From the IMG/VR virus record IMGVR_UViG_3300031656_000001: a stretch of 64,000 nucleotides of DNA. The stretch is one strand, 5' to 3'. The first letter of the stretch is position 1. Each line of letters starts with the position of its first letter. The translations under genes and the position numbers were made by a program. The DNA is from a virus. The notes beneath the pieces are model-generated. The model was not told the DNA's origin and searched no databases. It was given only the letters and a program-made list of their open reading frames with translations. Shown one piece after another: positions 14,281 through 63,910 of this stretch.

Positions 14281-14290
14281 TTATATATCT
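14281..14290 (-). promoter_or_regulatory. late promoter AGATATATAA
   Basis: Exact motif 19 nt upstream of the tube start. Confidence 0.65.
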
Positions 14291-17180: not shown

Positions 17181-17190
17181 TTATATATCT
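17181..17190 (-). promoter_or_regulatory. late promoter AGATATATAA
   Basis: Exact motif upstream of the sheath gene. Confidence 0.65.
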
Positions 17191-22801: not shown

Positions 22802-22978
22802 TTATATGTTGAGTATTGTGGTTGTTCGTTTAAATGCAATCGCATATGCATCTTTTTCTAAAAGGCTCTTATATTTATCTATTAATTCAACAGCAAGTTC
22901 TTTAACTTCATCTCTTAAGTTATAAGCGTTTGCTTCTATTAATATAAGTTCGATATCTGTAAGATCTTCGTGCGTCAT
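22802..22978 (-). CDS. small hypothetical protein (58 aa)
   Basis: Manual translation MTHEDLTDIELILIEANAYNLRDEVKEL...; TAATG coupling with the upstream stop. Confidence 0.5.
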   Translation of the reverse strand: MTHEDLTDIELILIEANAYNLRDEVKELAVELIDKYKSLLEKDAYAIAFKRTTTILNI

Positions 22979-25829: not shown

Positions 25830-27398
25830 TTACATTAATTTTGCGAATCGTTGAGCGATTGTTAAACCTTCATCTAATTTAATAGTTTTAGGTAATTCTA
25901 CTGCAACTGATTCTTCTATTTCATATGTTCCGTCTTTAACGAAATCAGCATGACCTGTCATACCGGCTAGTTTCATAATAGAACCTTTATCACCGGTCAT
26001 TGTCATTTCATCATAACCGTCTCCGAATGGATCAATATCTATAGTAACTTCAACTCCAATTTCTTTACCTTTATCTTTAATATAAGAATAATCTGGTTTT
26101 CCATCTTCGTCTTCTTCATCTGAATATGATTGTAATCCTGATAATGTCGCTTCATTAAGATCATCACCAGTTGGTGTATCTAATGATTCGTTTTCATTTG
26201 GTGTTTTAGGCACGATAGGCTTTCCATCTTTATCTACGGGTTTTGTTGCAACTTTAAGATTCTTAGATCCGCTTAGTGCTTTTAAATCTTCTTGTGCTTT
26301 TCCTAAATCAGCTACTAGTTTTTTACTTTTTTCTAAGTCATCACTACCATCAACATCATCTTGTTTTAATTTTGCTTTTAATAATTCAACATTAGCTGTT
26401 AATTTTTTAGCTTCATCATCACCGTCCTTTGCTTCATCATATTTAGTTTGCGCTGCTTCAACAGCAACTTTTGCAGCTTCTTTCTTCTCATCAGCCTTTA
26501 CCTTATCAGCTGCGTCTTTTTCCTCTTTTTTCTTTTTATCATCAGCTTTTTTAGCAGTGGCTTCGTCATCATTTGCAGCTGGTACCTTTTTAGCATCATC
26601 TTTATCAGACATCTGAGATTTTGATTTTGCATCTGCAGCAGCTTCTGCTTCTGCCGGTGTTTGTTCAGCAGCTGGAGCATCACCCTGTGCTGATGTATAA
26701 TCCTTTAATGATTGAGTATCATCAGCAATTCTATCTTCTAGTGTAGAAATTTCTAATTTAAGTTGTTTAGCTTCTTCACCTGATGTTGCTTTCATAACTG
26801 TTTTAGCAGCTATTAATTTAGCTTTAGTTTTACCTAAGCTAGCGACTTTAGCTAAACCTTCATCACCGCCAGTTAATTCTTTAATTCTGTCGCTTATGGC
26901 AGAAGACTGATCTGAAAGTGCTTGATTTTTAGCTTTATTTGCTTGATTAAGAACTTCTAATTTCTTTTTCCAATCAGCTGCATCTGTTTTTTCTTTTGTA
27001 GCTTCCTTTTTCTTTGCAAAATCAAGATCATTAATTGCAGATTGAACTAATGCTTTCTGATATTTTTTAAGGTTAGCTTTAATTTTTGTGAATTTAATTG
27101 GAGATTTTATAAAATCTAATAAACCTTCATTAACCGAAGTAAGATTAGTTAATTCAAAAAGTTCTTCAAAAAGATCATTAATTTCTGATTCTAATTCAGT
27201 AGATTCACCAACTGTTCCAATTCTATCAGATAATTCTGTCAGTGTATTTAGAATTGTATCAACGTCTCTTATTACTTCAGTTCTAACTGTGTCGCCTGGA
27301 GTTACAGTGTCAATAGATACTTGATCAACCGACTTGTTCGTTGGCATGTTCTCGTTTACGAATTGTTCGTAAAGCTTTAATTTAGATTTTAATTTCAT
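25830..27398 (-). CDS. putative prohead core/internal head protein
   Basis: KLKLYEQFVNE leader; Lys/Ala/Glu-rich coiled coil; downstream of the capsid gene with a late promoter. Confidence 0.6.
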   Translation of the reverse strand: MKLKSKLKLYEQFVNENMPTNKSVDQVSIDTVTPGDTVRTEVIRDVDTILNTLTELSDRIGTVGESTELESEINDLFEELFELTNLTSVNEGLLDFIKSPIKFTKIKANLKKYQKALVQSAINDLDFAKKKEATKEKTDAADWKKKLEVLNQANKAKNQALSDQSSAISDRIKELTGGDEGLAKVASLGKTKAKLIAAKTVMKATSGEEAKQLKLEISTLEDRIADDTQSLKDYTSAQGDAPAAEQTPAEAEAAADAKSKSQMSDKDDAKKVPAANDDEATAKKADDKKKKEEKDAADKVKADEKKEAAKVAVEAAQTKYDEAKDGDDEAKKLTANVELLKAKLKQDDVDGSDDLEKSKKLVADLGKAQEDLKALSGSKNLKVATKPVDKDGKPIVPKTPNENESLDTPTGDDLNEATLSGLQSYSDEEDEDGKPDYSYIKDKGKEIGVEVTIDIDPFGDGYDEMTMTGDKGSIMKLAGMTGHADFVKDGTYEIEESVAVELPKTIKLDEGLTIAQRFAKLM

Positions 27399-27433: not shown

Positions 27434-27443
27434 TTATATATCT
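27434..27443 (-). promoter_or_regulatory. late promoter AGATATATAA
   Basis: Exact motif. Confidence 0.6.
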
Positions 27444-27528: not shown

Positions 27529-28908
27529 TTATAGTGCTAAACCTTCAACATAGAATTTTTCGTATTGTGTACCTGGGTGGAATCCAGCTTCAACTAATGC
27601 GTATCTAGATTTAACAGCTACTTTCGGAGCCATTGTTCCTTCTGCGATCATTTGAACTGATTCAGCCATTAAGTAAGGCATGAAAATTAATCCAGCACCG
27701 TTACCATCACCTTTTCTACCAACTAATACTTCATGTGTAGTTTTACCTCCAGCAGTAACACCTTCGAAAGCCATGTTAGGATCAGTGTAAACATTGATTC
27801 CAGCAACAGAACCTACTGGGTAGATTGCTCCTGCAACTTGGTTAAATGTGTTAGCCATTGGGTTAGATACAAATCCTGCAACACCTTGTAAAGCTGAAGC
27901 AACTTTTGCATCAACTACAGCGAAGTTACCAGCACCTCTTCTACCTCTGTTAGCAATTAAGTTTGCAGCGGCTAAAACGTGTGTTAAGATTCTTCTATTA
28001 ACATCACCGTAAGTGTTTCCACCTTGAGTGTAAACTAATTCTAAGTTTCCAGCTAAAGTACCTTCACCAGCAATAGATCTCATTTTAGATAAAATGTGAG
28101 TATTGATAGATTGAGTTAATTCGTTAGTTAAAACTGCTTCTACTTGAGCAACAGCATCAACACCGAATTGTTTTAAATCTTGTACTTGCTCTCTTGTAAC
28201 TGCAGCAGCAACTTGGAAAGTTTCAGCAGCAACACTTTTAGAGAATAAAGAAAGACCCATTACTTTATCAGGAGTAGATTCACCAAGATCTCTTGACATT
28301 GGCTTATCGTTTGCATCAGCACCTGAGAATCCAGGAATGTGATCTTCTAAAGCTTTAACTAATTCAGCACCTGCATATCTTGCAGCTATATTTGCTTCAC
28401 CGTCTAATGCATCAACAATTTTGATAATTGATTTTCCATCAATTCTAGAAGTTCCAACTAATACATCGTTACCTGCAGCAACTGCATCAACTGCACCTTT
28501 AATATAAGTAGGTGTAACGTTTCCGTCAACTTTTCCACCTTCGTAAGTAAAGTCTAAGTAAGACAATAATCCCATTGGTCCTGCCATTGGTACTACTGGT
28601 ACTAAGTCTAAACCGATAGTTTGAGCAGCTACTTGCATTGCTAATGGTAATAAAGTCGGAGACTTGTCACCAGAACCATTTTCACCACCTGCTGCACCGT
28701 TAGATACTGCTGAAGGGAAAGATACTGCACCCATACCTGCTAAGTTCATGTTAGGGTTTAAAGACATGATGTTCGCGTCTTCGTAAAGTTTATGGTTGTG
28801 ACAGTAAGTCGACATCCATGCTAATTTGCTAGATTCGTTAATACCTGTAGCTTCCGAGATTATCGGTGCCCATGTATTTTTGATCTCAGCTTCGTTTAAT
28901 AAATTCAT
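27529..28908 (-). CDS. major capsid protein (gp23-like)
   Basis: WAPI, DLVPVVPMAGPMG, EQVQDLK, ELTQSIN, RRGAGNF, FMPY, KSRYAL. Confidence 0.92.
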   Translation of the reverse strand: MNLLNEAEIKNTWAPIISEATGINESSKLAWMSTYCHNHKLYEDANIMSLNPNMNLAGMGAVSFPSAVSNGAAGGENGSGDKSPTLLPLAMQVAAQTIGLDLVPVVPMAGPMGLLSYLDFTYEGGKVDGNVTPTYIKGAVDAVAAGNDVLVGTSRIDGKSIIKIVDALDGEANIAARYAGAELVKALEDHIPGFSGADANDKPMSRDLGESTPDKVMGLSLFSKSVAAETFQVAAAVTREQVQDLKQFGVDAVAQVEAVLTNELTQSINTHILSKMRSIAGEGTLAGNLELVYTQGGNTYGDVNRRILTHVLAAANLIANRGRRGAGNFAVVDAKVASALQGVAGFVSNPMANTFNQVAGAIYPVGSVAGINVYTDPNMAFEGVTAGGKTTHEVLVGRKGDGNGAGLIFMPYLMAESVQMIAEGTMAPKVAVKSRYALVEAGFHPGTQYEKFYVEGLAL

Positions 28909-29007: not shown

Positions 29008-29017
29008 TTATATATCT
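29008..29017 (-). promoter_or_regulatory. late promoter AGATATATAA of the capsid gene
   Basis: Exact motif 100 nt upstream of the capsid start. Confidence 0.65.
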
Positions 29018-29022
29018 ATGTT

Positions 29023-31083
29023 TTATTTGTTAAATCTCTTTTTGAATGCTTCAGCCATTTCTGTAACATCGTAACCGATGGTAGATTTAGGCGCTTCATC
29101 CTTAGATTCTGTTACCATTGCAACTTTTTCCATTTCAACTTTAGTATCTCTTAAGTCTCTAGTTTGCCAGAAATTAGCAACTTGGTATTCAGTTTTTAAT
29201 GAGTGGTATTTAGCTTGTGCTGTTATTTGATTCTGTTTAGATTCAGATAAGTTTTCCCATGCTGCGCTGTATTCCGCTGGCATTGCAGTAATAAACAATG
29301 GTTGTGCACCTTTGTTTTCAACAATAAGCTCTGCGTTATTCATTAATGATGAGATTTCAGATTCAGTCATAAAGCCTCTTTGAGAAACTGTATTTCTAAC
29401 TTCTGTTTTAGCTGATTCATTTAATGCGTTATACTTTTCTCTTGTCGTAGATGATACAACTCTAAAGAATGAAGGATTTTCATTTTCTTTTGCTGTAGCA
29501 TTTTCTACTAATTTATCTAATTTAGATGAGATTTCGCTTTTGTAAGATTCTAATGGATCTAATGCTCCTTCTTCACCTTCAGTTTCTTCTTCACCTTCAC
29601 CAGCTTTAGCTGCTTTGGTTTCTGCTTCAATTTCTGAATCAGATTTAATTGCGTCAGATTCTAAATCTTCAGCGTCTTCTCCATTTACTTCACCTTTAGT
29701 ATCACCTTCTTTTGAATTATCTCCTGCTTCAACTTCTTCACCTTCGATTTCTTCAACTTCTTTACCAGCTTTATCAGAATCAGCAGCTACTGCGCCTTCT
29801 TCAGAATTATCACCGATGTTTTCGATTTCTTCAGTTTCTTCAGCTTCGTCAGCGTCTTTTGCAGGAGCTTCAGCTTCTGCTACTTCTTTAGCAACTTCTT
29901 CACCTTCAACTTTATCAGCTGCTTCAACTTCTTCCTCTTCAGTTTCTTCAGCTTCAGCGTTAACTGGTACTTCAATAACTGTTTCGTTTAATGATTCTGC
30001 AATATACTCTGCATATTCAGAAACTGATTGTAAGTTTTCTTTTAAGTATTCAACATACTCTAATAAAGATTCGTGAGAAGTACTTCCTTCGTTATGTGCT
30101 TCTGCTAAATAATTAGCGAAGTCTTTAACTTTAGAAACTGCTTCAGCAACATGCTCTGTATAAGAGATATTGTTATCTAATGTTTCTGCTAAAGATTCAG
30201 CATATGAAATACTTTGATCTGTTTTCTCAGCAACATGTTCAGAATATTGAATGTTATCGTCTAATTTACCAGCGATGTATTCTACGTATTCTGTTAATTG
30301 ATTAACGTTTTCTACAACGTGATCACTATGATCTTTCAAGTTTTGTACTGTTTTATCTTCTGAAACTTCTTCATTTTTAGTTTCGATAGATTCTTTTAAT
30401 GTCTTGATCTCATTCGCCAAATACTCAGAGTACTTATTGAAATCCTCGGATTTTACAAATTCTGCCATGTTTTTATTTTCTTTTATTTGTGTGTTTGTGT
30501 TTTTAATAGGTTGGTTATCAATAGCTTCTGTGCCATTCATTTCGTAAATTGCTAAATTTCCTGCGTTTGAATAACCATACGTTTCGTTAACTCTCTTTAA
30601 CTCTGCGTTTTCAAAACCTGGATCAGCAACTAGATCATAAGTAAATAATTGTTTAATCTTTACTTGTCCGTTAGATTCAACTGCACCTGCAGCTCTAGAT
30701 GAAATCTGTAAAGGAACACCAGCATCTACTAAAGCTTTAGCTTGTCTTCCAGCGTCTGTATCTAATAATTTGATACGTCCTCTTACTTCTTTACTATCTT
30801 TGTCATATACAAGTTCTTCAATGATATGTGATACATTCTTTAAAGAAATGTCAAATTGTGCAGGATGATCTAATTCGCCCAATAACTTACTAGCTTTAAT
30901 TTTAGCTTGTAATGCTTCAATTTGTGGAACATACTCCGACTCAGTGTATATACGGTTGTTTTTGTTTTTTTGATCGATTTGACCAAAAATACCTTCAAGA
31001 ATGTAATCTTTGTTCTCTGAAGTTGTTACACTTAGAGCTGATGAAGACATCTCGACGATTAATAAATCGTTAGTATTTTTCAT
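29023..31083 (-). CDS. prohead protease (gp21-like) fused to scaffold/core (gp22-like)
   Basis: LEGIF..KNKNNRIY, LGELDHP, VSHII, ISSRAAG, YDLVADPG, then an acidic coiled coil. Confidence 0.88.
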   Translation of the reverse strand: MKNTNDLLIVEMSSSALSVTTSENKDYILEGIFGQIDQKNKNNRIYTESEYVPQIEALQAKIKASKLLGELDHPAQFDISLKNVSHIIEELVYDKDSKEVRGRIKLLDTDAGRQAKALVDAGVPLQISSRAAGAVESNGQVKIKQLFTYDLVADPGFENAELKRVNETYGYSNAGNLAIYEMNGTEAIDNQPIKNTNTQIKENKNMAEFVKSEDFNKYSEYLANEIKTLKESIETKNEEVSEDKTVQNLKDHSDHVVENVNQLTEYVEYIAGKLDDNIQYSEHVAEKTDQSISYAESLAETLDNNISYTEHVAEAVSKVKDFANYLAEAHNEGSTSHESLLEYVEYLKENLQSVSEYAEYIAESLNETVIEVPVNAEAEETEEEEVEAADKVEGEEVAKEVAEAEAPAKDADEAEETEEIENIGDNSEEGAVAADSDKAGKEVEEIEGEEVEAGDNSKEGDTKGEVNGEDAEDLESDAIKSDSEIEAETKAAKAGEGEEETEGEEGALDPLESYKSEISSKLDKLVENATAKENENPSFFRVVSSTTREKYNALNESAKTEVRNTVSQRGFMTESEISSLMNNAELIVENKGAQPLFITAMPAEYSAAWENLSESKQNQITAQAKYHSLKTEYQVANFWQTRDLRDTKVEMEKVAMVTESKDEAPKSTIGYDVTEMAEAFKKRFNK

Positions 31084-31139
31084 AATGTTTTATTTTTCTA
31101 TTTTTAATATATATCATACTTTATTATCTAAATATCTTA

Positions 31140-31478
31140 TTACAATCCTGCTAATGGATCCTCTTCATCCTCTTCGCCTTCTCCGCCTTCCTTTTCAGCT
31201 TCTTTTTCAGCTTCTAGTTCTTCTGCAGCTATATCATTGTATATCTTAACTAATTGGTCAATTTCACCTTCTGCGAAAGCGTTTTCACCATAACTATCAT
31301 AAAAATATTGTTTAAATTCATCGTCAGTCATTGATGCTGTTACAGCTCCTAAAATCTCTGCAGATTTTATAGTAGAACCTGAATCTAATTTAATATCGTC
31401 AATAATTATCTTGGAATCTTCTCCGGCTCTCATTGCATCTTCTGTAATGAAGTCTTCAAATGTTTTAATAATTTTCAT
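31140..31478 (-). CDS. small acidic prohead core-like protein
   Basis: Lies between portal and protease (the gp67/68 position); IKTFEDFITE leader. Confidence 0.55.
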   Translation of the reverse strand: MKIIKTFEDFITEDAMRAGEDSKIIIDDIKLDSGSTIKSAEILGAVTASMTDDEFKQYFYDSYGENAFAEGEIDQLVKIYNDIAAEELEAEKEAEKEGGEGEEDEEDPLAGL

Positions 31479-31505
31479 AATCTATATATCTTTTTTAATA
31501 GTGTG

Positions 31506-33098
31506 TTACATTGCGAATGGATCTTCAGCCTCTGGCTCTTCAGCAGTCGTTTTCTTTAATTTAGATTTGGCTGCTTCATTACCTCTAATTTCATCATCAC
31601 TTAATTTAAGATATTTCTTAACTAAGTATTCTTGATCGAAGTAATATTCTTCTTCCATTGTTTCTTGATTTGTTGTCATTAATGAGTCTCTCATTGTAGC
31701 AATAAAGTCTAAACGTTTCTCCATTAATTCCATGTCTTTTAATTCTGAGAATACATTTTCTTCATTAAATCGTAATGCGACTTGTGATTTGAATTGTGGA
31801 TCGTTTGTGAATTCAGGATATTTAAGACACATTTGAATAAACAAAGGCTTAGATAAAATTTCCATGAATGTAGATCTTAAACGTTTGATAAATTTACCAA
31901 ACTTAATTTCATCTCTAATCATACCATCAGCAGCAAGATTGAAATCTCCACCACCATCTTCATATAAGAATCTAGAGTAAGGTATTTTTGAAACGTGTTT
32001 TAATTTGTCTGAGAAGTATTTAAGTGCTTCTGTATCTGAAAGATCTGGTCCTTCACTGTTTAATGTTTCAATTTCTGGTGATTCACCATCTTTAGAAGGC
32101 AGCCAATACTCTTTACTAAATTGTAACATTGGTTTACCATCTGTTGCTAGTGTTCCTGATTCCCAATCAAAATCAACTGATTCTTTATAAGAGTTCATTA
32201 ACTGAGAAAGCGATTGCTTTGCTCTAGTCTTAGATTTACCACCGACAGGTATAACAAACTTCATTCTAAATGAAGCGTTAGTTACTGCCCATATAACTCT
32301 TGTGTGTTCCATTATTCTTAACAAGTTGAATGATCTTGTTAATCTCTCAATATATGAAACTCTTGATGTTGTTGTTATTGAAGAATATGAAATATAGATT
32401 ATTTGAGAATCATATAACTTTCTTTCTTTAACTGGATCATCTTTATATTGTACCCAAACTTTCTTACCATCTTCGTGGTTATATCCAGGAATAAGTGTAA
32501 TTGGATCTATTTCTTTAAATCCTATAATCTCTTGTTGATCTGGTGAATAAATAATCTCAAATGCTAAATATCCATCAATTAAGAATTTTCTAAAGAAGTA
32601 CCATGCTGATTGATCTGAGTTAAACCCAAAATAGTGATACAGTTGTCTAAAATATTTATTAAGATCTTTATCAACGTCGTCTGAAACATCCAATCCTAAT
32701 ATTTCTGGGTAACAGAAAAAGTTTTTATTATCGTATACTATTGATTCATCACAAAGAATATCTAAGATATCTTCAACCTCATCATTAAGTGAGAATTTTC
32801 TAAGTTCATCTCTTTTACCTTCATATGCTGTATCAAAGAACGGTATATTAGATCTAAGATTAGTATCTGTCATTGACATTGCTGCGAATGCACCATAGAT
32901 GTCATCGTTGTCAACGCCAAATGGATTCATTTGACCATAGCCAATTTCTGCTTCCATTGGGCCGATTGCTTGTGACTGTCTTAATACTAAGTCGTCATAT
33001 CGCATACCGAATGAGGATAAAGACTTCAAAGCATTTGAAATGCTAAAGGGTTTTGATCCGTTACTTAGTGGTCCGTTTCTATCGTTAAATCCTGCCAT
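31506..33098 (-). CDS. portal protein (gp20-like)
   Basis: FLIDG, NLLRIME...IW, YWLP, IETL, KIPYSR, IRDEIKFGKFIKRLR. Confidence 0.92.
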   Translation of the reverse strand: MAGFNDRNGPLSNGSKPFSISNALKSLSSFGMRYDDLVLRQSQAIGPMEAEIGYGQMNPFGVDNDDIYGAFAAMSMTDTNLRSNIPFFDTAYEGKRDELRKFSLNDEVEDILDILCDESIVYDNKNFFCYPEILGLDVSDDVDKDLNKYFRQLYHYFGFNSDQSAWYFFRKFLIDGYLAFEIIYSPDQQEIIGFKEIDPITLIPGYNHEDGKKVWVQYKDDPVKERKLYDSQIIYISYSSITTTSRVSYIERLTRSFNLLRIMEHTRVIWAVTNASFRMKFVIPVGGKSKTRAKQSLSQLMNSYKESVDFDWESGTLATDGKPMLQFSKEYWLPSKDGESPEIETLNSEGPDLSDTEALKYFSDKLKHVSKIPYSRFLYEDGGGDFNLAADGMIRDEIKFGKFIKRLRSTFMEILSKPLFIQMCLKYPEFTNDPQFKSQVALRFNEENVFSELKDMELMEKRLDFIATMRDSLMTTNQETMEEEYYFDQEYLVKKYLKLSDDEIRGNEAAKSKLKKTTAEEPEAEDPFAM

Positions 33099-33124: not shown

Positions 33125-33751
33125 TTATATATCTTTTCTTTTTGAGCGCGTTTTTAGGTGCTCTCTGAATGCTTTCTTGACCTCGTTGATTCCAATACCA
33201 TATAGATCTTGGAAATCACACAATGCGATCTTTGCCCAACTTTCATATGAAACTACTTTCTGGTTCTTTTTCAACTCTGGTATATATTGTCTAATAGCAA
33301 AATCAAATCCAAAATGTACTAAGAATTTTACAATATCTTTGTATATTAGTTTTATTTCACTTTGTGTTTTTGCGTTGTTTTCTTTAGATCTACCAGTGCT
33401 TGATTTTATTTGACCAGACATACGATCATATACCATATCTAATAAATCCTCTTTAAATTGAACTGGTAATAAATTTAGATTAATACCAACATCTGTTCCG
33501 CTCGAATGTGGTTCTAATGCAAGTACTACTGGATTCATATCCCACCATGGTAATGTTTTCATGTGTTTGGGTTTTTCATATCTAAATACATGAATCATAC
33601 CTGTTTTAAATGGTTTACCATGTTTTGATACAGTATGATCCTTAACGGACTTGACAGCCTTAGCAAACCATTTCTCAGCGCTTTTACGTGCTTTGACTTT
33701 TCCGCCAGCTTCTTTGCTTAAATCCTTAATATCTTTCTTTATCTTACCCAT
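33125..33751 (-). CDS. DNA end protector (gp2-like)
   Basis: FRYEKPKHMKTLPWWDMNPVV...GINLNLLP...AIRQY. Confidence 0.7.
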   Translation of the reverse strand: MGKIKKDIKDLSKEAGGKVKARKSAEKWFAKAVKSVKDHTVSKHGKPFKTGMIHVFRYEKPKHMKTLPWWDMNPVVLALEPHSSGTDVGINLNLLPVQFKEDLLDMVYDRMSGQIKSSTGRSKENNAKTQSEIKLIYKDIVKFLVHFGFDFAIRQYIPELKKNQKVVSYESWAKIALCDFQDLYGIGINEVKKAFREHLKTRSKRKDI

Positions 33752-45500: not shown

Positions 45501-45785
45501 TTATCTAAGACCTAATTCATCTCGTAAATCTTTCCAGTAAAAATCAGCAATGATTTCTTTAACTGTCATTTCATTATTTTCACCCCAATCAGATATGTAA
45601 TCAAACATTACTTCTTGGCTAAAATCGTCTTCGTCTAATTTACCATCCATGAATTCATCTTCATATGAATCATAAATGTCATCTGCAACCTCATCAGTAA
45701 ACACTCTAAGTTTTTTAATGTCTGATGATGAATATTTCTCGTTTAATGTTGAAGCAAATGCTTCAAATAATTTTACATGTTTCAT
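45501..45785 (-). CDS. acidic putative internal head protein (MKHVKLFEAF leader)
   Basis: Leader plus LNE, then an acidic domain. Confidence 0.7.
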   Translation of the reverse strand: MKHVKLFEAFASTLNEKYSSSDIKKLRVFTDEVADDIYDSYEDEFMDGKLDEDDFSQEVMFDYISDWGENNEMTVKEIIADFYWKDLRDELGLR

Positions 45786-45817
45786 AATTATTTTGTTTTG
45801 TTTTGTATTATTTTGTA

Positions 45818-46546
45818 TTATTGCCAGTCTCCGCCGTCAATTGAACCACCATCTATTAAAGATGTGAAATCATCAACTGATGTTACTTCACTTGACCATT
45901 CTTGACCACCGTAGTTATCTTCGTCTGACCAAACTGCAGTACCATCCCAATTGAATGTGTATTCGTTGCCATCATCAAATGGATTTTCACCAACAATTGA
46001 TATAATATCACCATCGAATGATGCATCATATTGATTTTCTAAGTTTTTAAATTCTTTCTTAAGGTTTACTTTAGCTTCGTTGATATTTGCAACAAACGCT
46101 TCGAATAATTTTACGTGTTTCATAATTGTTTTGTTTTGTTTAACATGTTCTGATATTTCATCTGCTTCATAAATAAAAACTGATGCCTTTGATGGTGCAA
46201 CCTCTATTGCAGATCCTACGTAAATTTGAACATACTTGTGTTTTGCTAAATCGACAACTGCGCCCCATTCAGAATATTCAGCTGCATCTTCTTTTCTTTC
46301 TTCAAATGAATCTTCAGGAGCATCTCCGTATTCTATAGATCCTTCTGATTTATGACCATATGCTGTACCATCTGTTAATTTAAAATCGTTCATTTCAAAT
46401 TCAACTTCATCATCATCAAAATCAGGATCTTCTTTTTGTGCTTTTTCTAGTTCTGCTAATTTCTTTTTAGCTGCACCTTGATTTAAATACAAGTGTATTA
46501 CTCCATAATCTGGTGTATTTTCTGTTACTGCGAATGCTTTTGCCAT
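45818..46546 (-). CDS. acidic two-module putative internal head protein
   Basis: Internal MKHVKLFEAF at ATG 46123. Confidence 0.7.
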   Translation of the reverse strand: MAKAFAVTENTPDYGVIHLYLNQGAAKKKLAELEKAQKEDPDFDDDEVEFEMNDFKLTDGTAYGHKSEGSIEYGDAPEDSFEERKEDAAEYSEWGAVVDLAKHKYVQIYVGSAIEVAPSKASVFIYEADEISEHVKQNKTIMKHVKLFEAFVANINEAKVNLKKEFKNLENQYDASFDGDIISIVGENPFDDGNEYTFNWDGTAVWSDEDNYGGQEWSSEVTSVDDFTSLIDGGSIDGGDWQ

Positions 46547-46566: not shown

Positions 46567-46878
46567 TTAGTCCCAGTTTTCTTCTTCTTCTGGCGCATGA
46601 TCATTAACGAAATCTATGAAGTCTTCTGCTGTTTTAATTTTGTCGCCATCATCAGACCTTGCAATCCTTTGGTCTTCACCATTTGCTGTTTCTTCTTCAG
46701 GATACCATGTGAATACCACTGCGTAGTCTTTGTTTTCTTCAAAATCCCATACTGTTATTTGGTTTCCGTCTAGCGTTACATTATGGAAGTAATCTTTGAT
46801 CTCTTTGAATTCTTTCTTATAAGATTTTGCTTCGTTTACTGTTGAAGCAAATGCTTCAAATAATTTTACGTGTTTCAT
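46567..46878 (-). CDS. acidic putative internal head protein (MKHVKLFEAF leader)
   Basis: Leader plus VNE-A; late promoter upstream. Confidence 0.7.
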   Translation of the reverse strand: MKHVKLFEAFASTVNEAKSYKKEFKEIKDYFHNVTLDGNQITVWDFEENKDYAVVFTWYPEEETANGEDQRIARSDDGDKIKTAEDFIDFVNDHAPEEEENWD

Positions 46879-46910
46879 AATTGTTTTGTTTTGTTTGTTG
46901 TATTATTAGG

Positions 46911-46920
46911 TTATATATCT
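46911..46920 (-). promoter_or_regulatory. late promoter AGATATATAA
   Basis: Exact motif upstream of the leader-gene array. Confidence 0.65.
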
Positions 46921-57333: not shown

Positions 57334-58152
57334 TTAATACTCAAATGGAGGTGTTCCGTAATCTGCTCTTTTAACAGCGAACCACATTCTTCCTATAACG
57401 AAATACCAGAATCTATCTGTTTCAATTATATAGTGTTCTCCTTTAGGACTCGTAGACTTATAACCACCTCTTGTGAAGTTCTTAGTTACAGGTACTCCGT
57501 CTTCCCATGTTTTATCAGTTGATTGTGCTTTGAATGATTTACCACTAAATGTAGCTAAATGAATTTCTGGATTCATCTTATCAGATTCCATATCTTCTGC
57601 AAATTGATCTATGCCTCTTGGTTTTTGAGCATCTGCTTCATTAACTTTAGATTCATTAAATGATTTCATCCATTCTGCTAATACATTTCTTGCTTCGCTT
57701 TTACTAAGATCAAACTCTTTTTGTAAATATGGAGCTGCACCAAACATATTGGTTTTACCAGAATCTCTTAGTGTTAATAGAAAGTCATAATAAATTCTAT
57801 CTTGATCTGAAGTTTTATCAACTCTAGATTCGTTTACTTTAGAATAAAGTCCTTTATCTCCGTTCCATTCCCAATCAGCTTCATCAAAACCTTTAAGTTT
57901 TTTAGCTTTTTGATAATCTTCAGATGACAAATGAGATTGTTTAAGATTTACTCCTTCTGATATGAAAGATTCTAATGTTTTTAAGTGTTTCATTCTTTTC
58001 TTTTTCTTTTTATATTCTTCTTCGGCATCGCCACTACCAGCTGGTACATCACCAGAACCTAATGTTCCGTTGCCCGGTAATTCTACTGGACCCATACCTG
58101 ACATTGCTGCGGTTGAAACTGTTTCTGTTAATTTTTTGCTAATATCTGACAT
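57334..58152 (-). CDS. modular putative internal head polyprotein
   Basis: Internal MKHLKTLESFISE; modules separated by xNE; the LRDSGKTNMF module resembles DUF5049. Confidence 0.65.
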   Translation of the reverse strand: MSDISKKLTETVSTAAMSGMGPVELPGNGTLGSGDVPAGSGDAEEEYKKKKKRMKHLKTLESFISEGVNLKQSHLSSEDYQKAKKLKGFDEADWEWNGDKGLYSKVNESRVDKTSDQDRIYYDFLLTLRDSGKTNMFGAAPYLQKEFDLSKSEARNVLAEWMKSFNESKVNEADAQKPRGIDQFAEDMESDKMNPEIHLATFSGKSFKAQSTDKTWEDGVPVTKNFTRGGYKSTSPKGEHYIIETDRFWYFVIGRMWFAVKRADYGTPPFEY

Positions 58153-58153
58153 A

Positions 58154-58474
58154 TTAAGCTTCTAAAAACTTTTTAGCTGCGTCTAATAACTCAGCATATG
58201 TGAACTTACTAGATAATGCATTTGATAAAACAGTTCCATCTTTTTTACCGGAAGCGTACATATCTGTACTATCAAATCCAATTCCTTCTGACCATGGTTT
58301 TTTAGGATCAAATCCTAGATCTGAAGAAAGAGATTGTGCCAATGAAGTGTTTCCTCTAAATTGATCGTCATATGATAATTTATCATCTCCGAATGTAGAA
58401 GGATCTACTGTTTTTCTACCTTCTGTTACTGTTTTCTTTGAGATAAATTCCTCGTATAATTTAGTGCGTTTCAT
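58154..58474 (-). CDS. putative internal head protein (MKRTKLYEEF leader)
   Basis: Start moved to ATG 58474; leader followed by VTE. Confidence 0.65.
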   Translation of the reverse strand: MKRTKLYEEFISKKTVTEGRKTVDPSTFGDDKLSYDDQFRGNTSLAQSLSSDLGFDPKKPWSEGIGFDSTDMYASGKKDGTVLSNALSSKFTYAELLDAAKKFLEA

Positions 58475-58481
58475 AACTGTT

Positions 58482-59531
58482 TTATTTTTGGTATCTTTTA
58501 ATGTCTTTAATACTATCCCAAACCTTCTTGGCACAATCTTTTATATTTCTTTTATGATATGCCATATCATAACCAGCGTTATATTCGTGCGCATCTAGAT
58601 CAGTGTAATGTACATATGTTGAAAATCTATTCAATAGAAAGTCCATGTGTTGCAAAATACCTGATATTTTATATTTATGGCTACCAGTACCTATCAGAAT
58701 ATCACCTTTCGAATCTCTATGTCCGCGAGCATTTGCGTTTGCAATAATCTCACCTATTAATTCTGTCGCTTCTTTAACTTTCTTATCAAGTGGCATTGCA
58801 AGAGCTCGATCTGCTATGATATCTTGATATCTTGCATGTGTTTGTTTTCTAAAGTCTTTATCTGATATGAATGCAGTTGCTCCTTTCTGAGCAGCTTTTC
58901 TTTCATCTTTAAGGTTTACCGTAGAATATCTTGCAGTAAGAATATCTAAATCAAGACAATAGCATATATCTGCAGTTCTTGCTACTTTCATAACAGTATC
59001 TAGACCTGTATTTCCTTTGTCGATTCCTGCTGAATCTTTCCTTTTAGATTGTTGAAGTTCTTGATGTCCATCAACATCAGGTACAATAGTTGCATATTTA
59101 AGGTTAGAACCATGTCGTGTGTATTTATTATCTTTAGCCCAATCAATATTCATCCATTTATTATCTACATTAGTAATTGCCAATAAAGTATTTGCTGGAA
59201 TAATACCACCGTTGTATATTGATATTTCTTCATCTTTATCATATGGATTTTGTATATGGTAATCGTTTTCTTTTTCATCTGTTACAAAGTACATGTATAC
59301 TGCGTTTGCTCGTTTTTCTCTCCTAGCAACCATTGGATCCAATTCGATGATATCTTCATCTTTTATTTTATCTAATTTAAGTTTAGTCATTTTGTAAAAT
59401 GCAGCTGGAAGACCTTCTGGTAATTTATTAGCACCTGTTAATATATTTGCTAATTTAGTAGAAGCAAATGCTTCGTTTAATGATGAATCTGATTCGTTTA
59501 TGAATTGTTCAAATAATTTAATGTGTTTCAT
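58482..59531 (-). CDS. putative internal head protein, paralog of 59564..60556
   Basis: MKHIKLFEQFINE leader; shares blocks with its neighbour. Confidence 0.7.
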   Translation of the reverse strand: MKHIKLFEQFINESDSSLNEAFASTKLANILTGANKLPEGLPAAFYKMTKLKLDKIKDEDIIELDPMVARREKRANAVYMYFVTDEKENDYHIQNPYDKDEEISIYNGGIIPANTLLAITNVDNKWMNIDWAKDNKYTRHGSNLKYATIVPDVDGHQELQQSKRKDSAGIDKGNTGLDTVMKVARTADICYCLDLDILTARYSTVNLKDERKAAQKGATAFISDKDFRKQTHARYQDIIADRALAMPLDKKVKEATELIGEIIANANARGHRDSKGDILIGTGSHKYKISGILQHMDFLLNRFSTYVHYTDLDAHEYNAGYDMAYHKRNIKDCAKKVWDSIKDIKRYQK

Positions 59532-59563
59532 ATCTGTTTTATTATTGTTTTATTATTGTTTTA

Positions 59564-60556
59564 TTACCAAGCGTATGTCATGTCTTCAATTTTCTTGATA
59601 TTATCAGCACATCTTTTTGCATATTCTTTTGCAGATTTACCATACCAATTAGAAGCTTTACCATATGCTTTGATTTCATCTTCTTCTTGTCTAACATAAT
59701 CAGCATATCTAGAGTAGTCATCTAATATATTGTTCATGTGCTGAGAAGCATCTCTTAATTTAACTTCTTTACCTTTTGATGATTTACCAATCATCGGATC
59801 ACCATATCTTGTTTTTTCACCAGACTTTAATCCAGATTTGATTTGTTCTGCTAATGAATCAATTGCATCTGCAACCATTTTGTCTAATGGTAATTTTGAA
59901 GCTTTAGTTGCTAAAATTTCTTGGTATCTTGTCATGTTATCAGATTTGAAATCTTTATCAGATTTGAATGCGATTGCACCTGATTTAGCAGAATTTCTTT
60001 CAGCTCTTATGTTCGCTGTTGAATATTTTTGTTGTAATAATGTTAAATTGATTACAATTGCTCTATCAGCAACTTCTGCAATTCTTTTAACATTATAAAG
60101 TCCCGTTGCATCCCAACCTTTATACTTCTTAGAAATACCTATGGAATCTGCTGGATTATTTCCTGTTCTAATCAATCCTCTTTTCCATGTGTTTTCATAA
60201 AAACTATTATCTCCCGATGCAAGTGCTAATAAATAACCTCCACCTGGTATAACTTTGCTACTTTCGTATGCGTCGCTTGGTGCATATGGATTTTCTTTTT
60301 GATTATCTGAAATATAAAATACGATTGCGTTATCAGACTTCTCTTTATATGCTGTCATTGGATCAGTCACTATAATATCTTCATCTTGTACTTTGTCTAA
60401 CGCTAATTTAGTTTTACCATAAAATGCCTTAGTTAATGATTTGTCAGCTTTAGAGCCTTTACCTGTTAATATGCCCGCTAATATAGCTGAAGCAAATGAT
60501 TCATTTAAAGATTCTGTGAATTCTTCGAATGATTCGAATAAAAATTTGTGTTTCAT
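59564..60556 (-). CDS. putative internal head protein, paralog of 58482..59531
   Basis: MKHKFLFESFEEFTESLNE leader. Confidence 0.7.
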   Translation of the reverse strand: MKHKFLFESFEEFTESLNESFASAILAGILTGKGSKADKSLTKAFYGKTKLALDKVQDEDIIVTDPMTAYKEKSDNAIVFYISDNQKENPYAPSDAYESSKVIPGGGYLLALASGDNSFYENTWKRGLIRTGNNPADSIGISKKYKGWDATGLYNVKRIAEVADRAIVINLTLLQQKYSTANIRAERNSAKSGAIAFKSDKDFKSDNMTRYQEILATKASKLPLDKMVADAIDSLAEQIKSGLKSGEKTRYGDPMIGKSSKGKEVKLRDASQHMNNILDDYSRYADYVRQEEDEIKAYGKASNWYGKSAKEYAKRCADNIKKIEDMTYAW

Positions 60557-60597
60557 GTTTATATTGTTTTGTTTATTGTTTTGTTTTTAATATGATT

Positions 60598-62043
60598 TTA
60601 ATCTGATTCTGAGCCAATTATTGCAATCTGAGGTATACCATTGTAAAAATCAATAACCGATTCCGATACATCAAGAATGTCCGATACTGCGCGGTGCATG
60701 TGGTTTATCTGCTTACCATATTCGCCATCTTCTCTTAAATATATTATAATTGAATTTGGTGAAACTGAGCCCTTTCCAACATCAGTTGTTTCTGGATAGT
60801 TACCTCTACCTGAATATCTAGTAGAAATTACTTCGGCTTTAAGCATATCTTTCCAATATTCTTGGAATCGACCAGTTCTTAATGTAACTCTAATGAAATC
60901 ACGATGTTTCAATTCTAATGAAAGTTCTAGCTCCTCGCCTCCATTTGTCCATTCAGCACGAATCTGTTCCTTTAGGTTAGCATTAACACCTTTTAAAATT
61001 GCTGATTTTACCTTTTTTAAATCTGAAGGATTATTCATATAATCCATACTAGTTGGATTCTTATAATCTTCAACTTCTTCATTCCACAATGACTTTACTG
61101 TTTCTTTAATACCTGGAAATGGAAATTGTCTTTTTCCAATTTTTAACGACTTGATGTTAAAACGACTTCTTGTAGCCTCGTTTAAAGATTCTGTGAATTC
61201 TTTAAAGCTTTCAAATATAAAATTTGTTTTCATGTTATTGTTTTGTTTATTTTCTATTACTAATTTTGGATTCTTGTTTAAAAGCTCTTCCATATCTAAT
61301 TCGGTTAATGCCATAAAACTGTCTTCACCGTATTTTTTGGCTAATTTGTCAGCTCTCTTTATGTTTATTACTCTTGCAATCTCATCATATGATAATGTTG
61401 CTATTCCGAATTCTCCGAATATTTCTTCTGCATTTGCATTTGCTATTTTAAAAGCACTTGCCTTTTCATTAATATCTGGTGTATTTATAACCGGAGTTAA
61501 TTCGTTAAGTACTCTTTTACCTGTTTTAGAAAGTGTAATTCCATCTTCGCTTACATTTAAATAAGTAGAGTTTCTTCTCATCCATCTGCCAGAATCCGTA
61601 GTCATTTCTCTTAAAATCGTATTGAATTCTTCTTTGGTAATTTTACCATCTTTGATAGCTTCTAAAACTTTGTTTCTGATTTTAGCTGCTTTACCAACTT
61701 TAACTGCTGGGTGATTTTCAGTATACTTTCGTTTTACTGTGATGTGTCTTTCAGTTAATGACTCTTCTAATTTCTTAGCTGCTAATTTAGAATCTTTTTT
61801 AGAAACGTTATCTAAATAAGAACCTTCTCCCCAAAAAGAAATAACTGCCTTAGTATCTGCAGTAGAATGGAATCCAGAACCTGCTTTGTAAATTGCAATT
61901 TCTTGTAAACCTTTTTTGTTTTCTATAGCATCAGACATGAATGCTCTTGCATCTTTTTCTGATTTAAACTTTTTTGCAGCTCTTATCCCATCAGAATAAT
62001 GTACTTCGAAATTTTCATTTATGTGATTGTCAAATGTATCCAT
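60598..62043 (-). CDS. modular putative internal head polyprotein
   Basis: Start moved to ATG 62043; internal MKTNFIFESFKEFTESLNE at 61233. Confidence 0.65.
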   Translation of the reverse strand: MDTFDNHINENFEVHYSDGIRAAKKFKSEKDARAFMSDAIENKKGLQEIAIYKAGSGFHSTADTKAVISFWGEGSYLDNVSKKDSKLAAKKLEESLTERHITVKRKYTENHPAVKVGKAAKIRNKVLEAIKDGKITKEEFNTILREMTTDSGRWMRRNSTYLNVSEDGITLSKTGKRVLNELTPVINTPDINEKASAFKIANANAEEIFGEFGIATLSYDEIARVINIKRADKLAKKYGEDSFMALTELDMEELLNKNPKLVIENKQNNNMKTNFIFESFKEFTESLNEATRSRFNIKSLKIGKRQFPFPGIKETVKSLWNEEVEDYKNPTSMDYMNNPSDLKKVKSAILKGVNANLKEQIRAEWTNGGEELELSLELKHRDFIRVTLRTGRFQEYWKDMLKAEVISTRYSGRGNYPETTDVGKGSVSPNSIIIYLREDGEYGKQINHMHRAVSDILDVSESVIDFYNGIPQIAIIGSESD

Positions 62044-62062
62044 TTTTAATTTGTTTGTTTTA

Positions 62063-63910
62063 TTATATATTTTTGATAAATTCATCAAATGTCAAAGTGT
62101 CGTCTTCTGATTCTGTTACGACTCCCATGGACTCTTCTAATTTAGCTTTTAATTCTTTATACATGTTATGTATTGGTTTCGGTGTAAGCTTCTTAAACAA
62201 CTTCTCATCGTCATCTAACATTGCGTTTCTAACCTGTGTTGCTGAAATGTTTTTACCTGTTCTTGGTATTTCATATAATCCGAAATCAGGTCTAACGCCA
62301 AGATCTTCTCTATAAGAATCTTTATTTACTTGGAATCCATAAGTTTTCATTCTATCACTTCCAGTTCCCCATAATACTGGTTCGTATTTAGGTCTCATTG
62401 CATTAAACATGTGATCAATTCCGCCTGTCGGTATTACAAATACTTCTTCTATAGGATATTTGCTTTTTAGATTCTTAATCATTTCGACTTGTGTTTCTTC
62501 GTCGAATGGTCTCTTAAATGCATCTTCTGCTTTTTTAGTCTTAGACTTAACTAAGAATATTACAACAGGAAATCCATTCTGTTTGTGAATTGTTTCTATA
62601 ACTTTAATATGTCCTAATGTAAACGGTTGAAATCTACCAACAAACATGTTAACTGGTGTTTTACCTTGTTCTGGATAATTAACTGTCAATGCTTCTAATA
62701 TTGGAGTTTCTGTATACTGCAGTTTTTGATTAACTAAATATGATTTAAAGTTCATAACATCATTTTCATTGGTTTTCGCCATAACTGACGTTTCAATAGC
62801 ATCTACTATTGAATTGATCTGATTCATTAAATCTTTATTAATGATGTCAGTTTCTTTGTGTCTTGTTTTTCTAAAACTGCCTAAAGCAATTTTAAATAAT
62901 TCTGATAAGATTTCATTCTGAACTAATGATAAAGTCTTTTCATTTTTTATGAATACTTTATTAAGTTCAAAACCTTTCCTTTCTGAAAAATCTGCAGAGT
63001 TGAAATTAGTGCCGACATATTTTGTTGCGTTCTTTTCAACATACGCATTAAATATATTAGAGATTATTTCAATGTATCTTGAATCAGCCTCTTCTTCTTC
63101 TAACTTAATAGCAGTAATGTCAAACGCAGTAATAAATTCTACCAAATCCAAAATTGAAAGTTGGTACATATCAGATGGTTTTCTTGCTTCTTGTGGCTTT
63201 CTATCAAATCTCTCCAATTTAAAGCTTTTCATGCCTTTACCATCAGAGAAATTAATTATTAAACCATCAATGTCATTATCTAATGAATGATTTAACGCTG
63301 GAGTATTAAGTCCATTGTTGAATATGTTGTATATTGTTCTTGTAAAAGATTGTGATCCGTATTTGATTTCAAAATCTTTATCTGATATTTCTAGAAGATT
63401 AAGTAGATCATCCTTTTGATTAGATTGTAGTTTACCTTGGAATATAACAGGAGGTCTTTGTGCTCCTAATAGATCTGCCCATTTATTTAAAATAACAGGA
63501 TCTCTAATAACCTTTTTGACTTGTGTTAAATCATTTGGTTTTAATATTTGAATATGTGTTAATATTAAATGATTTTTGGGTAAAGCATCGTATTCAATAT
63601 CTACCGTTTTATTATCTAACATATAATCAAATCCAAACTTCCAATCCAATGGCATATCTTCAGTCAATTCTGTTAATATAGTATTGAAATACTTAATACC
63701 ACTTTCATAGTATTTAATCATCGTCCTGTCTACTCTGTCCATTGCATGTTTTGAACCACTTTTGAAGTATTCAAACCCTGTTTTAGTTCTTTTAACATGG
63801 AAAGATGACGCTTGTATCTTTTCTGATACGACACATGGAATATCTAACATTGACACGAAGTCATTGATGTTAGATGATTGATAATACGTTCTTAAGTTTT
63901 GTAAAGCCAT
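62063..63910 (-). CDS. degenerate RNA-ligase-like domain fused to a cytidylyltransferase-like nucleotidyltransferase
   Basis: N-terminal VSEKIQA...DGLII...FK; C-terminal FVGRFQPFTLGH...GSDR...ISATQVR. Confidence 0.7.
   Translation of the reverse strand: MALQNLRTYYQSSNINDFVSMLDIPCVVSEKIQASSFHVKRTKTGFEYFKSGSKHAMDRVDRTMIKYYESGIKYFNTILTELTEDMPLDWKFGFDYMLDNKTVDIEYDALPKNHLILTHIQILKPNDLTQVKKVIRDPVILNKWADLLGAQRPPVIFQGKLQSNQKDDLLNLLEISDKDFEIKYGSQSFTRTIYNIFNNGLNTPALNHSLDNDIDGLIINFSDGKGMKSFKLERFDRKPQEARKPSDMYQLSILDLVEFITAFDITAIKLEEEEADSRYIEIISNIFNAYVEKNATKYVGTNFNSADFSERKGFELNKVFIKNEKTLSLVQNEILSELFKIALGSFRKTRHKETDIINKDLMNQINSIVDAIETSVMAKTNENDVMNFKSYLVNQKLQYTETPILEALTVNYPEQGKTPVNMFVGRFQPFTLGHIKVIETIHKQNGFPVVIFLVKSKTKKAEDAFKRPFDEETQVEMIKNLKSKYPIEEVFVIPTGGIDHMFNAMRPKYEPVLWGTGSDRMKTYGFQVNKDSYREDLGVRPDFGLYEIPRTGKNISATQVRNAMLDDDEKLFKKLTPKPIHNMYKELKAKLEESMGVVTESEDDTLTFDEFIKNI

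Follow-up and report, generated by a model that had tools for sequence, protein, structure and literature searches.

A predicted capsid-targeting leader and protease-type joints in candidate cargo proteins of an uncultured T4-superfamily jumbo phage

We analysed a 64,000-nucleotide stretch of viral DNA (IMG/VR virus record IMGVR_UViG_3300031656_000001), hereafter called the window, in which about ten genes encode proteins that share a short leader peptide. The window corresponds, in reverse complement and with 5 mismatches, to positions 11991-75990 of one 80,140-bp viral contig, and comes from a fragment of an uncultured T4-superfamily jumbo myovirus. All of its genes are on the minus strand. 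Our explanation, to which we assign a probability of roughly 0.68, is that the leader corresponds, in this lineage, to the T4 capsid targeting sequence (CTS), that it marks cargo chains packaged and processed in the phage head, and that one enzyme carries a mirrored form of the tag. A first-pass annotation of the same DNA had proposed a similar system. Its CTS-type leader, its estimate of about ten tagged genes and its multi-module joints found strong comparative support. Conversely, its C-terminal leader copy, its use of the capsid sequence as proof and its description of the system as much larger than that of T4 did not hold up.

Leaders recur at gene starts and internally, and each peptide quoted in the first-pass annotation was found in its place on the minus strand. 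N-terminal leaders start at 59531 (MKHIKLFEQFINE), 60556 (MKHKFLFESFEEFTESLNE), 58474 (MKRTKLYEEF), 27398 (MKLKSKLKLYEQFVNE) and 31478 (MKIIKTFEDFITE). The ATG at 58474 lies within a longer open reading frame (ORF) with a GTG start (58154-58534) and is the likelier start codon. Internal leaders begin at 57993 (MKHLKTLESFISE, residue 54 of 272) and 61233 (MKTNFIFESFKEFTESLNE). We identified three additional leaders in the window, at 46878, at 45785 and, internally, at 46123, all reading MKHVKLFEAF...[LIV]NE. Further examples are found elsewhere on the contig, outside the window (MKTFNKYIVEE, MQKLKSFEQYATE and MKQFLSYQQFLVE). Two of the tagged genes in the window are in the head module and three, encoding small acidic proteins, are at 45.5-46.9 kb. 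The rest are in a block at 57.3-63.9 kb, where 5 of 6 genes have N-terminal or internal leaders.

A scan of the 80,140-bp contig with a leader regular expression gave 11 sense and 0 antisense matches. The same expression was applied to relatives. In 1.2 Mb around homologous proteases there were 74 sense and 0 antisense matches. In 0.75 Mb around homologues of a 349-aa leader protein, which represent cargo loci, there were 187 and 1. A generalised motif, [FY]xx[FY][LIV]xE, was found 5 times in the first 12 residues of proteins, compared to 0.12 expected (maximum 2 in 500 shuffles). The proteins that follow a leader fall into 54 BLAST-distinct families. In IMG/VR the identical 13-mer MKHIKLFEQFINE was found 46 times, and 21 unrelated families begin with it. 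An exact leader and an S77 protease were found together on one of five further contigs, all five of which are fragments.

The leaders are 13-19 aa in length and have the consensus MK-x-x-K-[LT]-[FY]-E-x-F-[ILV]-[NST]-E. Residue E13 is invariant, position 11 is I, V or L, and P1' is mostly A, S, G, D, E or K. We compared 129 distinct DNA contexts. Synonymous codons varied freely (F10: TTT 86, TTC 43; L6: CTA 52, TTA 38), while H3, I4, K5 and N12 were conserved although the regular expression left them free. Amino-acid entropy rose from ~0 to 3-3.8 bits directly after E13. Such a pattern is expected of a signal that acts at the level of the peptide and has a sharp functional end, and is a poor fit to an RNA or DNA element.

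In T4, residues 4 and 7 of the leader drive targeting, and residues 8 and 10 drive processing by gp21 (PMC9026906). The T4 internal proteins (IPs) IPII and IPIII start MKTYQEFIAE/A in the T4 record, and IPI starts MKTFKEFTSTTTPVSTITE/A (the slash follows the Glu of the site, here and below). Variants of the T4 leader with Asp in place of Glu are still targeted but no longer processed. The leader MKHIKLFEQFINE/S keeps an aromatic residue, Phe, Ile and Glu at the spacing of the mapped T4 functional positions. More generally, the leaders keep [FY] and F three residues apart, followed by [ILV]-x-E. We built a position-specific scoring matrix (PSSM) of 8 columns from 70 distinct leaders of this clade only, and used it to scan the six-frame translation of T4. 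IPIII and IPII ranked 3rd and 4th of 204,655 T4 sequence windows, and the N-terminus of the gp22 scaffold ranked 13th. The match at functional positions and the recovery of the T4 IPs agree with the first-pass view of the leader as a T4-type targeting propeptide ending in a prohead-protease site. At the sequence level, the system groups with T4 CTS cargo in each membership test that we applied. Judged on these comparisons, the tag is probably a capsid-targeting leader that is removed by the protease. The scan also drew attention to T4 gp61.1 (L136:18966-19130, minus strand), which starts MKTFKEFIKE/D, a near-perfect CTS, and ranked 5th of the 204,655.

The window encodes a prohead protease fused to a scaffold in a single 686-aa polypeptide (29023-31083). 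The S77 domain spans residues 27-138. Its Peptidase_S77 match (Pfam PF03420, 1.9e-11) and a BLASTP match to T4 gp21 (4e-10) place it in the gp21 family. The motifs ELDHP and ISSRA align with ELNHP and VSSRG of gp21; we take them to bear its catalytic His and Ser. The polypeptide contains 29 [LIV]xE sites, which in the scaffold part reach 4.2 per 100 residues against a background of 1.9. Residues 258-369 (29977-30312) consist of 14-residue repeats with the pattern xxx[YF]x[EN][YH][VLI]AExxxx, the best copies being DFANYLAE/A, EYVEYLKE/N and EYAEYIAE/SLNE/T. The repeats contain 3 matches to [FY]xx[FY][LIV]xE, the motif common to the T4 CTS and the leaders, where 0.07 were expected (P ~1e-4). A slightly relaxed form of this motif, allowing [LIVA] at the fifth position, is present in 2-6 copies in each of 54 homologues. 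The likeness between leader and repeat suggests that the leader imitates the scaffold's own assembly helix. The tandem arrangement places a protease-type [LIV]AE every 14 residues. From its sequence, the scaffold would be cut into ~14-residue peptides, like T4 gp22.

Two tagged genes flank this part of the head module. A 112-aa protein with an acidic C-terminus (MKIIKTFEDFITE; 31140-31478) is encoded between the protease gene and the portal gene (Portal_T4 in Pfam; 31506-33098). This is the position of gp67 and gp68 in T4, and the leader is conserved in 53 orthologues. A K/E-rich 522-aa protein (MKLKSKLKLYEQFVNE; 25830-27398) is encoded directly downstream of the capsid gene. Its leader is also conserved among orthologues, and it has a conserved VNE91/G. 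The major capsid protein itself (Pfam Gp23; 27529-28908) begins MNLLNE/AEIKNTW. The first-pass annotation had cited this start in support of a processing code. The sequence is present and conserved, but so are all of the first ~50 residues, and the N-terminus is colinear with the T4 gp23 propeptide. Hence, MNLLNE/A proves nothing about maturation and is ambiguous as a maturation site. The capsid protein has no [LIV]xE at the position of LTE65 in T4.

Several tagged proteins are chains of modules. One, of 481 aa, is encoded at 60598-62043; its true start is the ATG at 62043, which has an A-rich upstream context, and not the TTG at 62088. It consists of a leader (MDTFDNHINE), module A (residues 11-98), module B (99-181), a linker, module C (194-264), the internal leader MKTNFIFESFKEFTESLNE (271-289; 61177-61233) and module D (290-481). 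The N-terminal leader is degenerate; it ranked 11 of 94,064 sequence windows with the PSSM, and reads MNFNQFLNE in relatives. Homology to other proteins breaks at INE10, LTE98, LNE181, INE193, VIE264 and LNE289. At the joint of A and B (LTE98/R; 61750-61758) the starts of high-scoring segment pairs (HSPs) cluster at residues 92-96, and relatives have VNE/SKIT or LDE/SRKIT in the same place. At the end of B (LNE181/L; 61501-61509) HSP ends peak at 182-183, and at the end of C (VIE264/N; 61252-61260) they fall at 264-265. In several relatives A and B are in reverse order or elsewhere, again flanked by VNE/, VTE/ or LDE/.

A second chain, of 272 aa (57334-58152), has a conserved Gly-rich N-terminal region (residues 1-53), the internal leader MKHLKTLESFISE (54-66; 57955-57993), modules ending at the joints VNE108 and VNE172, and a C-terminal module (173-272). 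Breakpoints are at 63-66, where HSP ends cluster, and at 167-171. A third, of 242 aa (45818-46546), joins a 141-aa upstream module to an 85-aa module through the internal leader MKHVKLFEAFVANINE (46076-46123). The 85-aa module stands alone in 6 relatives. Three module families in all occur in two states, as stand-alone proteins that begin with a leader and as fusions in which the leader marks exactly the point of attachment to a preceding module. In the 349-aa family, most members are fused (21/32). With regard to the 272-aa protein, some relatives (L094:9357.., L096:8750.., L124:9349.., L266:7260-7643) have a small module, starting MPSxSKxQQRLMG, fused ahead of the Gly-rich segment (GSGDVPAGxGDA..EYKKKKK) and internal leader; the protein encoded here retains the Gly-rich part only. 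The start of the small module may resemble DUF3008.

Across the clade, 128 tagged ORFs yielded 1,909 breakpoints of homology within the proteins. Breakpoints fell exactly on the Glu of [LIV]xE in 9.8% of cases, compared to 2.4% of random positions (4.2-fold). Enrichment was 6.3-fold for [LIV]NE and 6.9-fold for [LIV][NT]E. Eight control motifs ([LIV]xD, [LIV]xK, [LIV]xQ, [LIV]xN, [FYW]xE, [AGS]xE, [KR]xE and the reversed motif) gave values of 0.6-1.7. One joint, E-S-[VL]-[NT]-E, recurs, and its 28 cases are encoded by 22 different 15-mers. Thus, the joint is a feature of the peptide rather than microhomology used in recombination. Tagged ORFs contain E-S-[VL]-[NT]-E at 3.4 times, and [LIV]NE at 2.3 times, the density seen in the other ORFs of their loci. 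The coincidence of breakpoints with [LIV]xE specifically, and the reordering of modules in relatives, substantiate the earlier statement that unrelated modules are separated by LNE, INE, VNE or LTE. On this sequence evidence we favour cleavage of the chains at their joints, with less confidence than we have in removal of the leader.

The sole member of the 57.3-63.9 kb block without a leader is a 615-aa protein (62063-63910), which shows 46-80% identity across 80 loci. It combines an Rnl2-like RNA ligase (residues ~1-380) with an NMNAT/PPAT-like nucleotidyltransferase (~415-596). The ligase part of the AlphaFold2 (AF2) model (predicted local distance difference test score 82) matched T4 Rnl2 structures 2hvr and 2hvq in Foldseek (E 1e-7). 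In ligase motif I, EKIQASSFH, residues E30, K31, S35, F37 and H38 are invariant in 24 homologues. The C-terminal domain contains GRFQPFTLGH, with the (H/T)xGH motif, and matches CTP_transf_like in Pfam (2e-10) and NMNAT and PPAT in PDB profile and Foldseek searches. The protein may be an RNA-repair or NAD-related enzyme.

The first-pass annotation had listed TLTFDEFIKNI, at the C-terminus of this protein, among the related leaders. It is not a copy of the leader but a mirrored tag, in which the cleavage-type site comes first and the helix last. The tag (62066-62119) comprises VTE/S (residues 598-601), a variable spacer and the terminal helix TLTFDEFIKNI; it ranked 17 of 94,064 sequence windows with the leader PSSM. 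A TFxxF tail is present in 52 of 53 distinct homologues, with the consensus [LM]TF[DE]QF[IL]KNI. In 44 of the 53 it is preceded by a site of the type [LIVAT]xE[SA], and the spacer differs in length and sequence. The AF2 model is disordered at residues 596-606 and helical at 608-613. In T4, gp21 likewise trims the C-terminus of Alt (PMC9026906). An NMNAT-like enzyme that stands alone in other phages has an ordinary N-terminal leader. The neighbourhood is preserved in a 462-kb uncultured phage (LR756500.1, 260957-272903; L266), where a leader-tagged 421-aa protein is followed by a homologue of the RNA-ligase-NMNAT protein and then by small leader-tagged proteins. The leaders of this phage have the form M[KE]F[LV]K[ST]Y[EL]EF[LI]NE, and its ligase-NMNAT protein has no C-terminal tag.

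We propose the following mechanism. The leader would form a short amphipathic helix that docks proteins onto the scaffold core during prohead assembly. The gp21-type (S77) prohead protease would then remove the leader at its terminal site. Where two to five unrelated modules form a chain, linked either through a full internal leader or through a short joint of the E-S-[VL]-[NT]-E type, the protease would most likely cut the chain into separate pieces inside the head. The RNA-ligase-NMNAT protein would use the mirrored tag: a protease-type site, a flexible spacer and a terminal TF[DE]QFIKNI helix. Delivery of the cargo into the host, by analogy with T4, has in our estimate an even chance of being correct. 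A bolder extension, in our estimate less likely than not, is that the leader is a single free copy of the scaffold repeat ([YF]xx[YF][ILV]AE). Cargo would then be loaded by mimicking the helix through which the scaffold assembles, and the cuts that take the scaffold apart would also set the cargo free. The leader, its internal form, the E-S-[VL]-[NT]-E joint and the mirrored tag at the C-terminus would together form a general plug-in grammar for changeable multi-module cargo in a large clade of marine jumbo phages. If so, the plug-in cargo delivered with the DNA would include the conserved RNA-ligase-NMNAT enzyme, possibly repairing RNA.

A number of observations weigh against the proposal that these are packaged and processed cargo chains. 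The cargo proteins have isoelectric points of 4.2-8.8, unlike the basic T4 IPs, and the main cargo block is 26 kb away from the head genes. The head module of PTm1, the nearest cultured phage by capsid, has no comparable leaders. A tblastn search with the 349-aa protein gave no match in phage genomes, and the cargo families found none among 50,697 deposited phage genomes. Since no cultured relative exists and no cargo family matched in Pfam, PHROGs, the PDB (by sequence or fold) or the protein atlas, packaging, cutting and injection rest on analogy with T4. When only this genome is considered, [LIV]NE is scarcely more frequent than background outside the leaders. This single-genome test was of little help, and the joints draw their support from comparison with relatives. 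We also rejected a general richness of cargo in [LIV]xE, which was 1.1-fold relative to other proteins clade-wide; what stands out is the form containing N or T, and its placement at breakpoints. The nominal breakpoint P-value is inflated, because joints are common to related proteins; the real argument is specificity relative to the control motifs. The strict leader PSSM did not rank the scaffold repeats highly. Their likeness is to the generalised motif only, and hence we treat it as a hypothesis. Finally, a start-like A-rich context is kept before the internal leaders, so that downstream parts may also be translated separately.

That context lends itself to another explanation. Internal leaders could be mainly the independent starts of nested or recently fused genes, with joints that are tolerated recombination linkers and stay uncut, so that the head machinery would handle only true N-terminal leaders. 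The A-rich aaaacaaaacaatt-ATG is indeed retained before the internal leaders at 46123, 61233 and 57993, and the same modules are separate genes in some relatives. However, the 349-aa family is mostly fused (21/32), with conserved in-frame junctions, and LTE98, LNE181 and VIE264, having no ATG, could not serve as starts. The protease motif is enriched at breakpoints whereas [LIV]xD, [LIV]xK, [LIV]xQ and [LIV]xN are not, and joints are conserved as peptide, not as DNA. We consider this explanation improbable. Still less probable, and in our view very much so, is a leader unrelated to the capsid, by which the proteins are recognised by something else, for example a modifying enzyme, a chaperone or a host factor. 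The separation of the main cargo block from the head genes would suit such a tag. Against it, the functional residues of the T4 CTS are matched, an unbiased profile recovered the T4 IPs, and orthologues in the gp67/68 slot carry the leader. Moreover, the site type at the end of the leader is that of the S77 protease encoded by the phage itself, and this site type recurs in the scaffold. With respect to a modifying enzyme, radical-SAM (PF04055) had no match in the 80-kb contig, itself ~26% of the genome.

A different question is what the packaged proteins do. They might be packaged and trimmed as we propose, yet the conserved ones (349-aa, 522-aa and 112-aa) could be parts of the head core or inner body that organise a large genome, and not injected effectors. 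The 349-aa family is found at 50 loci, is duplicated here and ends in a long three-helix bundle with generic structural matches only. The 522-aa protein is charged, repeat-like and encoded next to the capsid gene, while the 112-aa protein occupies the gp67/68 slot and has an acidic tail like that of T4 gp67. Giant phages of the phiKZ type have many processed internal head proteins (PMC5694885). Conversely, the variable small cargo (54 families, many of them singletons) behaves like the hyperplastic Ip loci of T-even phages, whose products are anti-restriction proteins (PMC12373910), and the RNA-ligase-NMNAT protein is an enzyme rather than a structural protein. We regard a purely structural role for the conserved set as unlikely, though far less so than the two explanations above. 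The term 'effectors', used in the first-pass annotation, is a guess; widely conserved cargo may be structural head-core proteins.

Among known systems, the closest is the T4 set of IPI, IPII, IPIII, Alt, gp67 and gp68 (Mullaney and Black 1996, via PMC9026906; PMC3012670). Both have an MK propeptide of 10-19 residues, with an aromatic residue and Phe three apart and an [ILV]-x-E site at the known or predicted cut. Both place the tag on otherwise unrelated proteins, alongside a gp21-family protease and a scaffold core. Both encode a small acidic tagged protein between the portal and protease genes, and Alt provides a precedent for C-terminal processing. Unlike T4, the leaders described here have 13-19 residues and their own consensus, MKHIKLFEQF[ILV]NE, with Asn preferred at P2. 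There are ~10 tagged genes in 64 kb of a fragment, internal tags, chains of up to five modules and a mirrored C-terminal tag on one enzyme. The protease and scaffold are one polypeptide, the cargo is not uniformly basic, and the system is known here from sequence alone.

Among T-even phages as a group, a shared signal defines at least 10 Ip families, and Ip1-3 inhibit specific GmrSD enzymes (Repoila et al. 1994, as cited in PMC12373910). As in those hyperplastic loci, a conserved leader here precedes fast-changing, unrelated cargo genes in variable clusters. The difference is that shuffling also occurs within reading frames, at peptide joints, and that the lineage is marine or aquatic. Given at least 10 T-even Ip families (PMC12373910), and giant phages that process many head proteins (PMC5694885), the description of the system as much larger than the T4 one was an overstatement. 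In phiKZ-like phages (phiKZ gp175, 201phi2-1, SPN3US gp245), a gp21-related protease cleaves many internal head proteins on the C-terminal side of Glu (PMC5694885, PMC7411985); paralogues share conserved N-termini, and propeptides have multiple sites. Those propeptides are mostly >100 residues long with the motif A/S/G-x-E (PMC5694885), whereas the leaders described here are short and T4-like, with L, I or V at P3. We rejected assignment to the phiKZ-like inner-body class on account of the 13-19 aa leaders with L/I/V at P3.

RNA viruses and retroviruses produce several functional units as one polyprotein, which their own protease divides at a short site that recurs along the chain. Here, cutting would instead occur within the prohead of a double-stranded DNA phage, and the chain would co-load cargo behind one address tag. 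We found no published phage example of a cargo polyprotein cut in the prohead in the literature that we searched. Relative to that literature, the new elements are the tag in a very distant clade of uncultured aquatic jumbo phages, the internal tags, and the module-swapped chains with protease-type joints. Also new are the mirrored tag at the C-terminus of a conserved RNA-ligase-NMNAT protein and the resemblance to scaffold repeats.

To our knowledge, proteins carried into the cell with phage DNA are known for just a handful of laboratory phages. The three internal proteins of T4 all proved to inhibit host restriction enzymes specifically. If our explanation is true, such cargo could be read directly from sequence in an abundant clade of uncultured aquatic jumbo phages, by means of the address tag and the cutting rule. 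Dozens of new protein families would become candidate factors for the first minute of infection. It would also follow that a single tag can bring several modules into a phage head as one cleavable chain, and that the modules are exchanged at the cut sites. The likeness of tag and scaffold repeat suggests a testable mechanism for the action of the T4 CTS, a question that we did not find addressed in the literature searched. A short, portable tag with its cognate protease could extend T4 protein-packaging technology to other capsids.

The remaining cargo genes are as follows. Two paralogues of the 349-aa family are encoded side by side. The first is a 330-aa protein (59564-60556) with the leader MKHKFLFESFEEFTESLNE at 60500-60556, and the second is the 349-aa protein (58482-59531), in which the leader MKHIKLFEQFINE is followed by SDSSLNE (59472-59531). 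In the AF2 model of the 349-aa protein, the leader (residues 1-20) is a low-confidence helix separate from the body. A 106-aa leader protein (MKRTKLYEEFISKKTVTE/G; 58154-58474) clusters with this family by BLAST. In the block at 45.5-46.9 kb, acidic leader proteins of 103 aa (MKHVKLFEAFASTVNE; 46567-46878) and 94 aa (MKHVKLFEAFASTLNE; 45501-45785) are encoded on either side of the 242-aa fusion. Searches of Pfam and PHROGs with all leader proteins and block genes matched only the cytidylyltransferase domain. PDB profile searches with the 349-aa and 522-aa families gave nothing meaningful, and Foldseek with the 349-aa model gave no match with E below 1. A VIA-wide search with the 349-aa protein gave generic helical-bundle matches only (residues 237-349, Z up to 9.6), at noise level for helical proteins. 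Neither the 349-aa family nor module D gained a usable lead from the protein atlas.

An 8-mer, GATATATA, followed by A or T, occurs in 18 sense-strand copies in the contig and is absent from the opposite strand. Portal, protease, sheath, tube and other structural genes, as well as three leader genes, have a copy at a distance of 12-45 nt upstream, the distance being 12 nt for the 112-aa gene and 44 nt for the 522-aa gene. The capsid gene has one 108 nt upstream. Copies on the coding strand include those at 46912-46919 (upstream of the 103-aa gene), 31483-31490, 31108-31115, 29009-29016, 27435-27442, 33126-33133, 17182-17189 and 14282-14289. A further copy just past the end of the window heads a tightly packed run of eight genes (gaps of 2-48 nt), and the six genes at 57334-63910 are the downstream part of that run. 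The 8-mer is probably the late promoter of the lineage, the counterpart of TATAAATA in T4.

The contig has no terminal repeat and an estimated completeness of ~26% (CheckV). Its T4-superfamily core comprises capsid, protease-scaffold, portal, gp2-like DNA end protector, tail sheath and tail tube genes. The nearest capsid proteins are from uncultured huge phages (51% identity), Lak phages (37%) and Tenacibaculum phage PTm1 (32%). Identity to T4 gp23 is 23%, and the lineage is very distant from T4. A megablast search with the head module gave no match among deposited phages. Related phages reach 462 kb, as in the uncultured phage LR756500.

Some matches to the leader motif were false positives. 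Six in relatives lie inside a gene for an RNase H-like exonuclease. The corresponding match in the window, IIYDQFVKE (23400-23424, in the gene at 22978-24249; MKHADTIYDQFIKE in orthologues), is a conserved internal segment of this replication enzyme. Another match, outside the window at position 4356 of G000, is doubtful; the protein has a RuvC-like N-terminus by eye. This 216-aa protein (G000:C1:3888-4538) has MNKLQLFDAFQQNVNE at residue 157, 44 residues before its end, which may be a chance occurrence or a C-proximal tag.

Most gene starts are preceded by A-rich tracts (aaaacaaaacaatt-ATG) with no Shine-Dalgarno sequence, for example at 59532-59560, 46879-46900 and 45786-45810. Such starts are typical of Bacteroidota and their phages, and the host is probably a member of this phylum. 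Read in frame, the A-rich tracts give K/N/Q-rich linkers ahead of the internal leaders.

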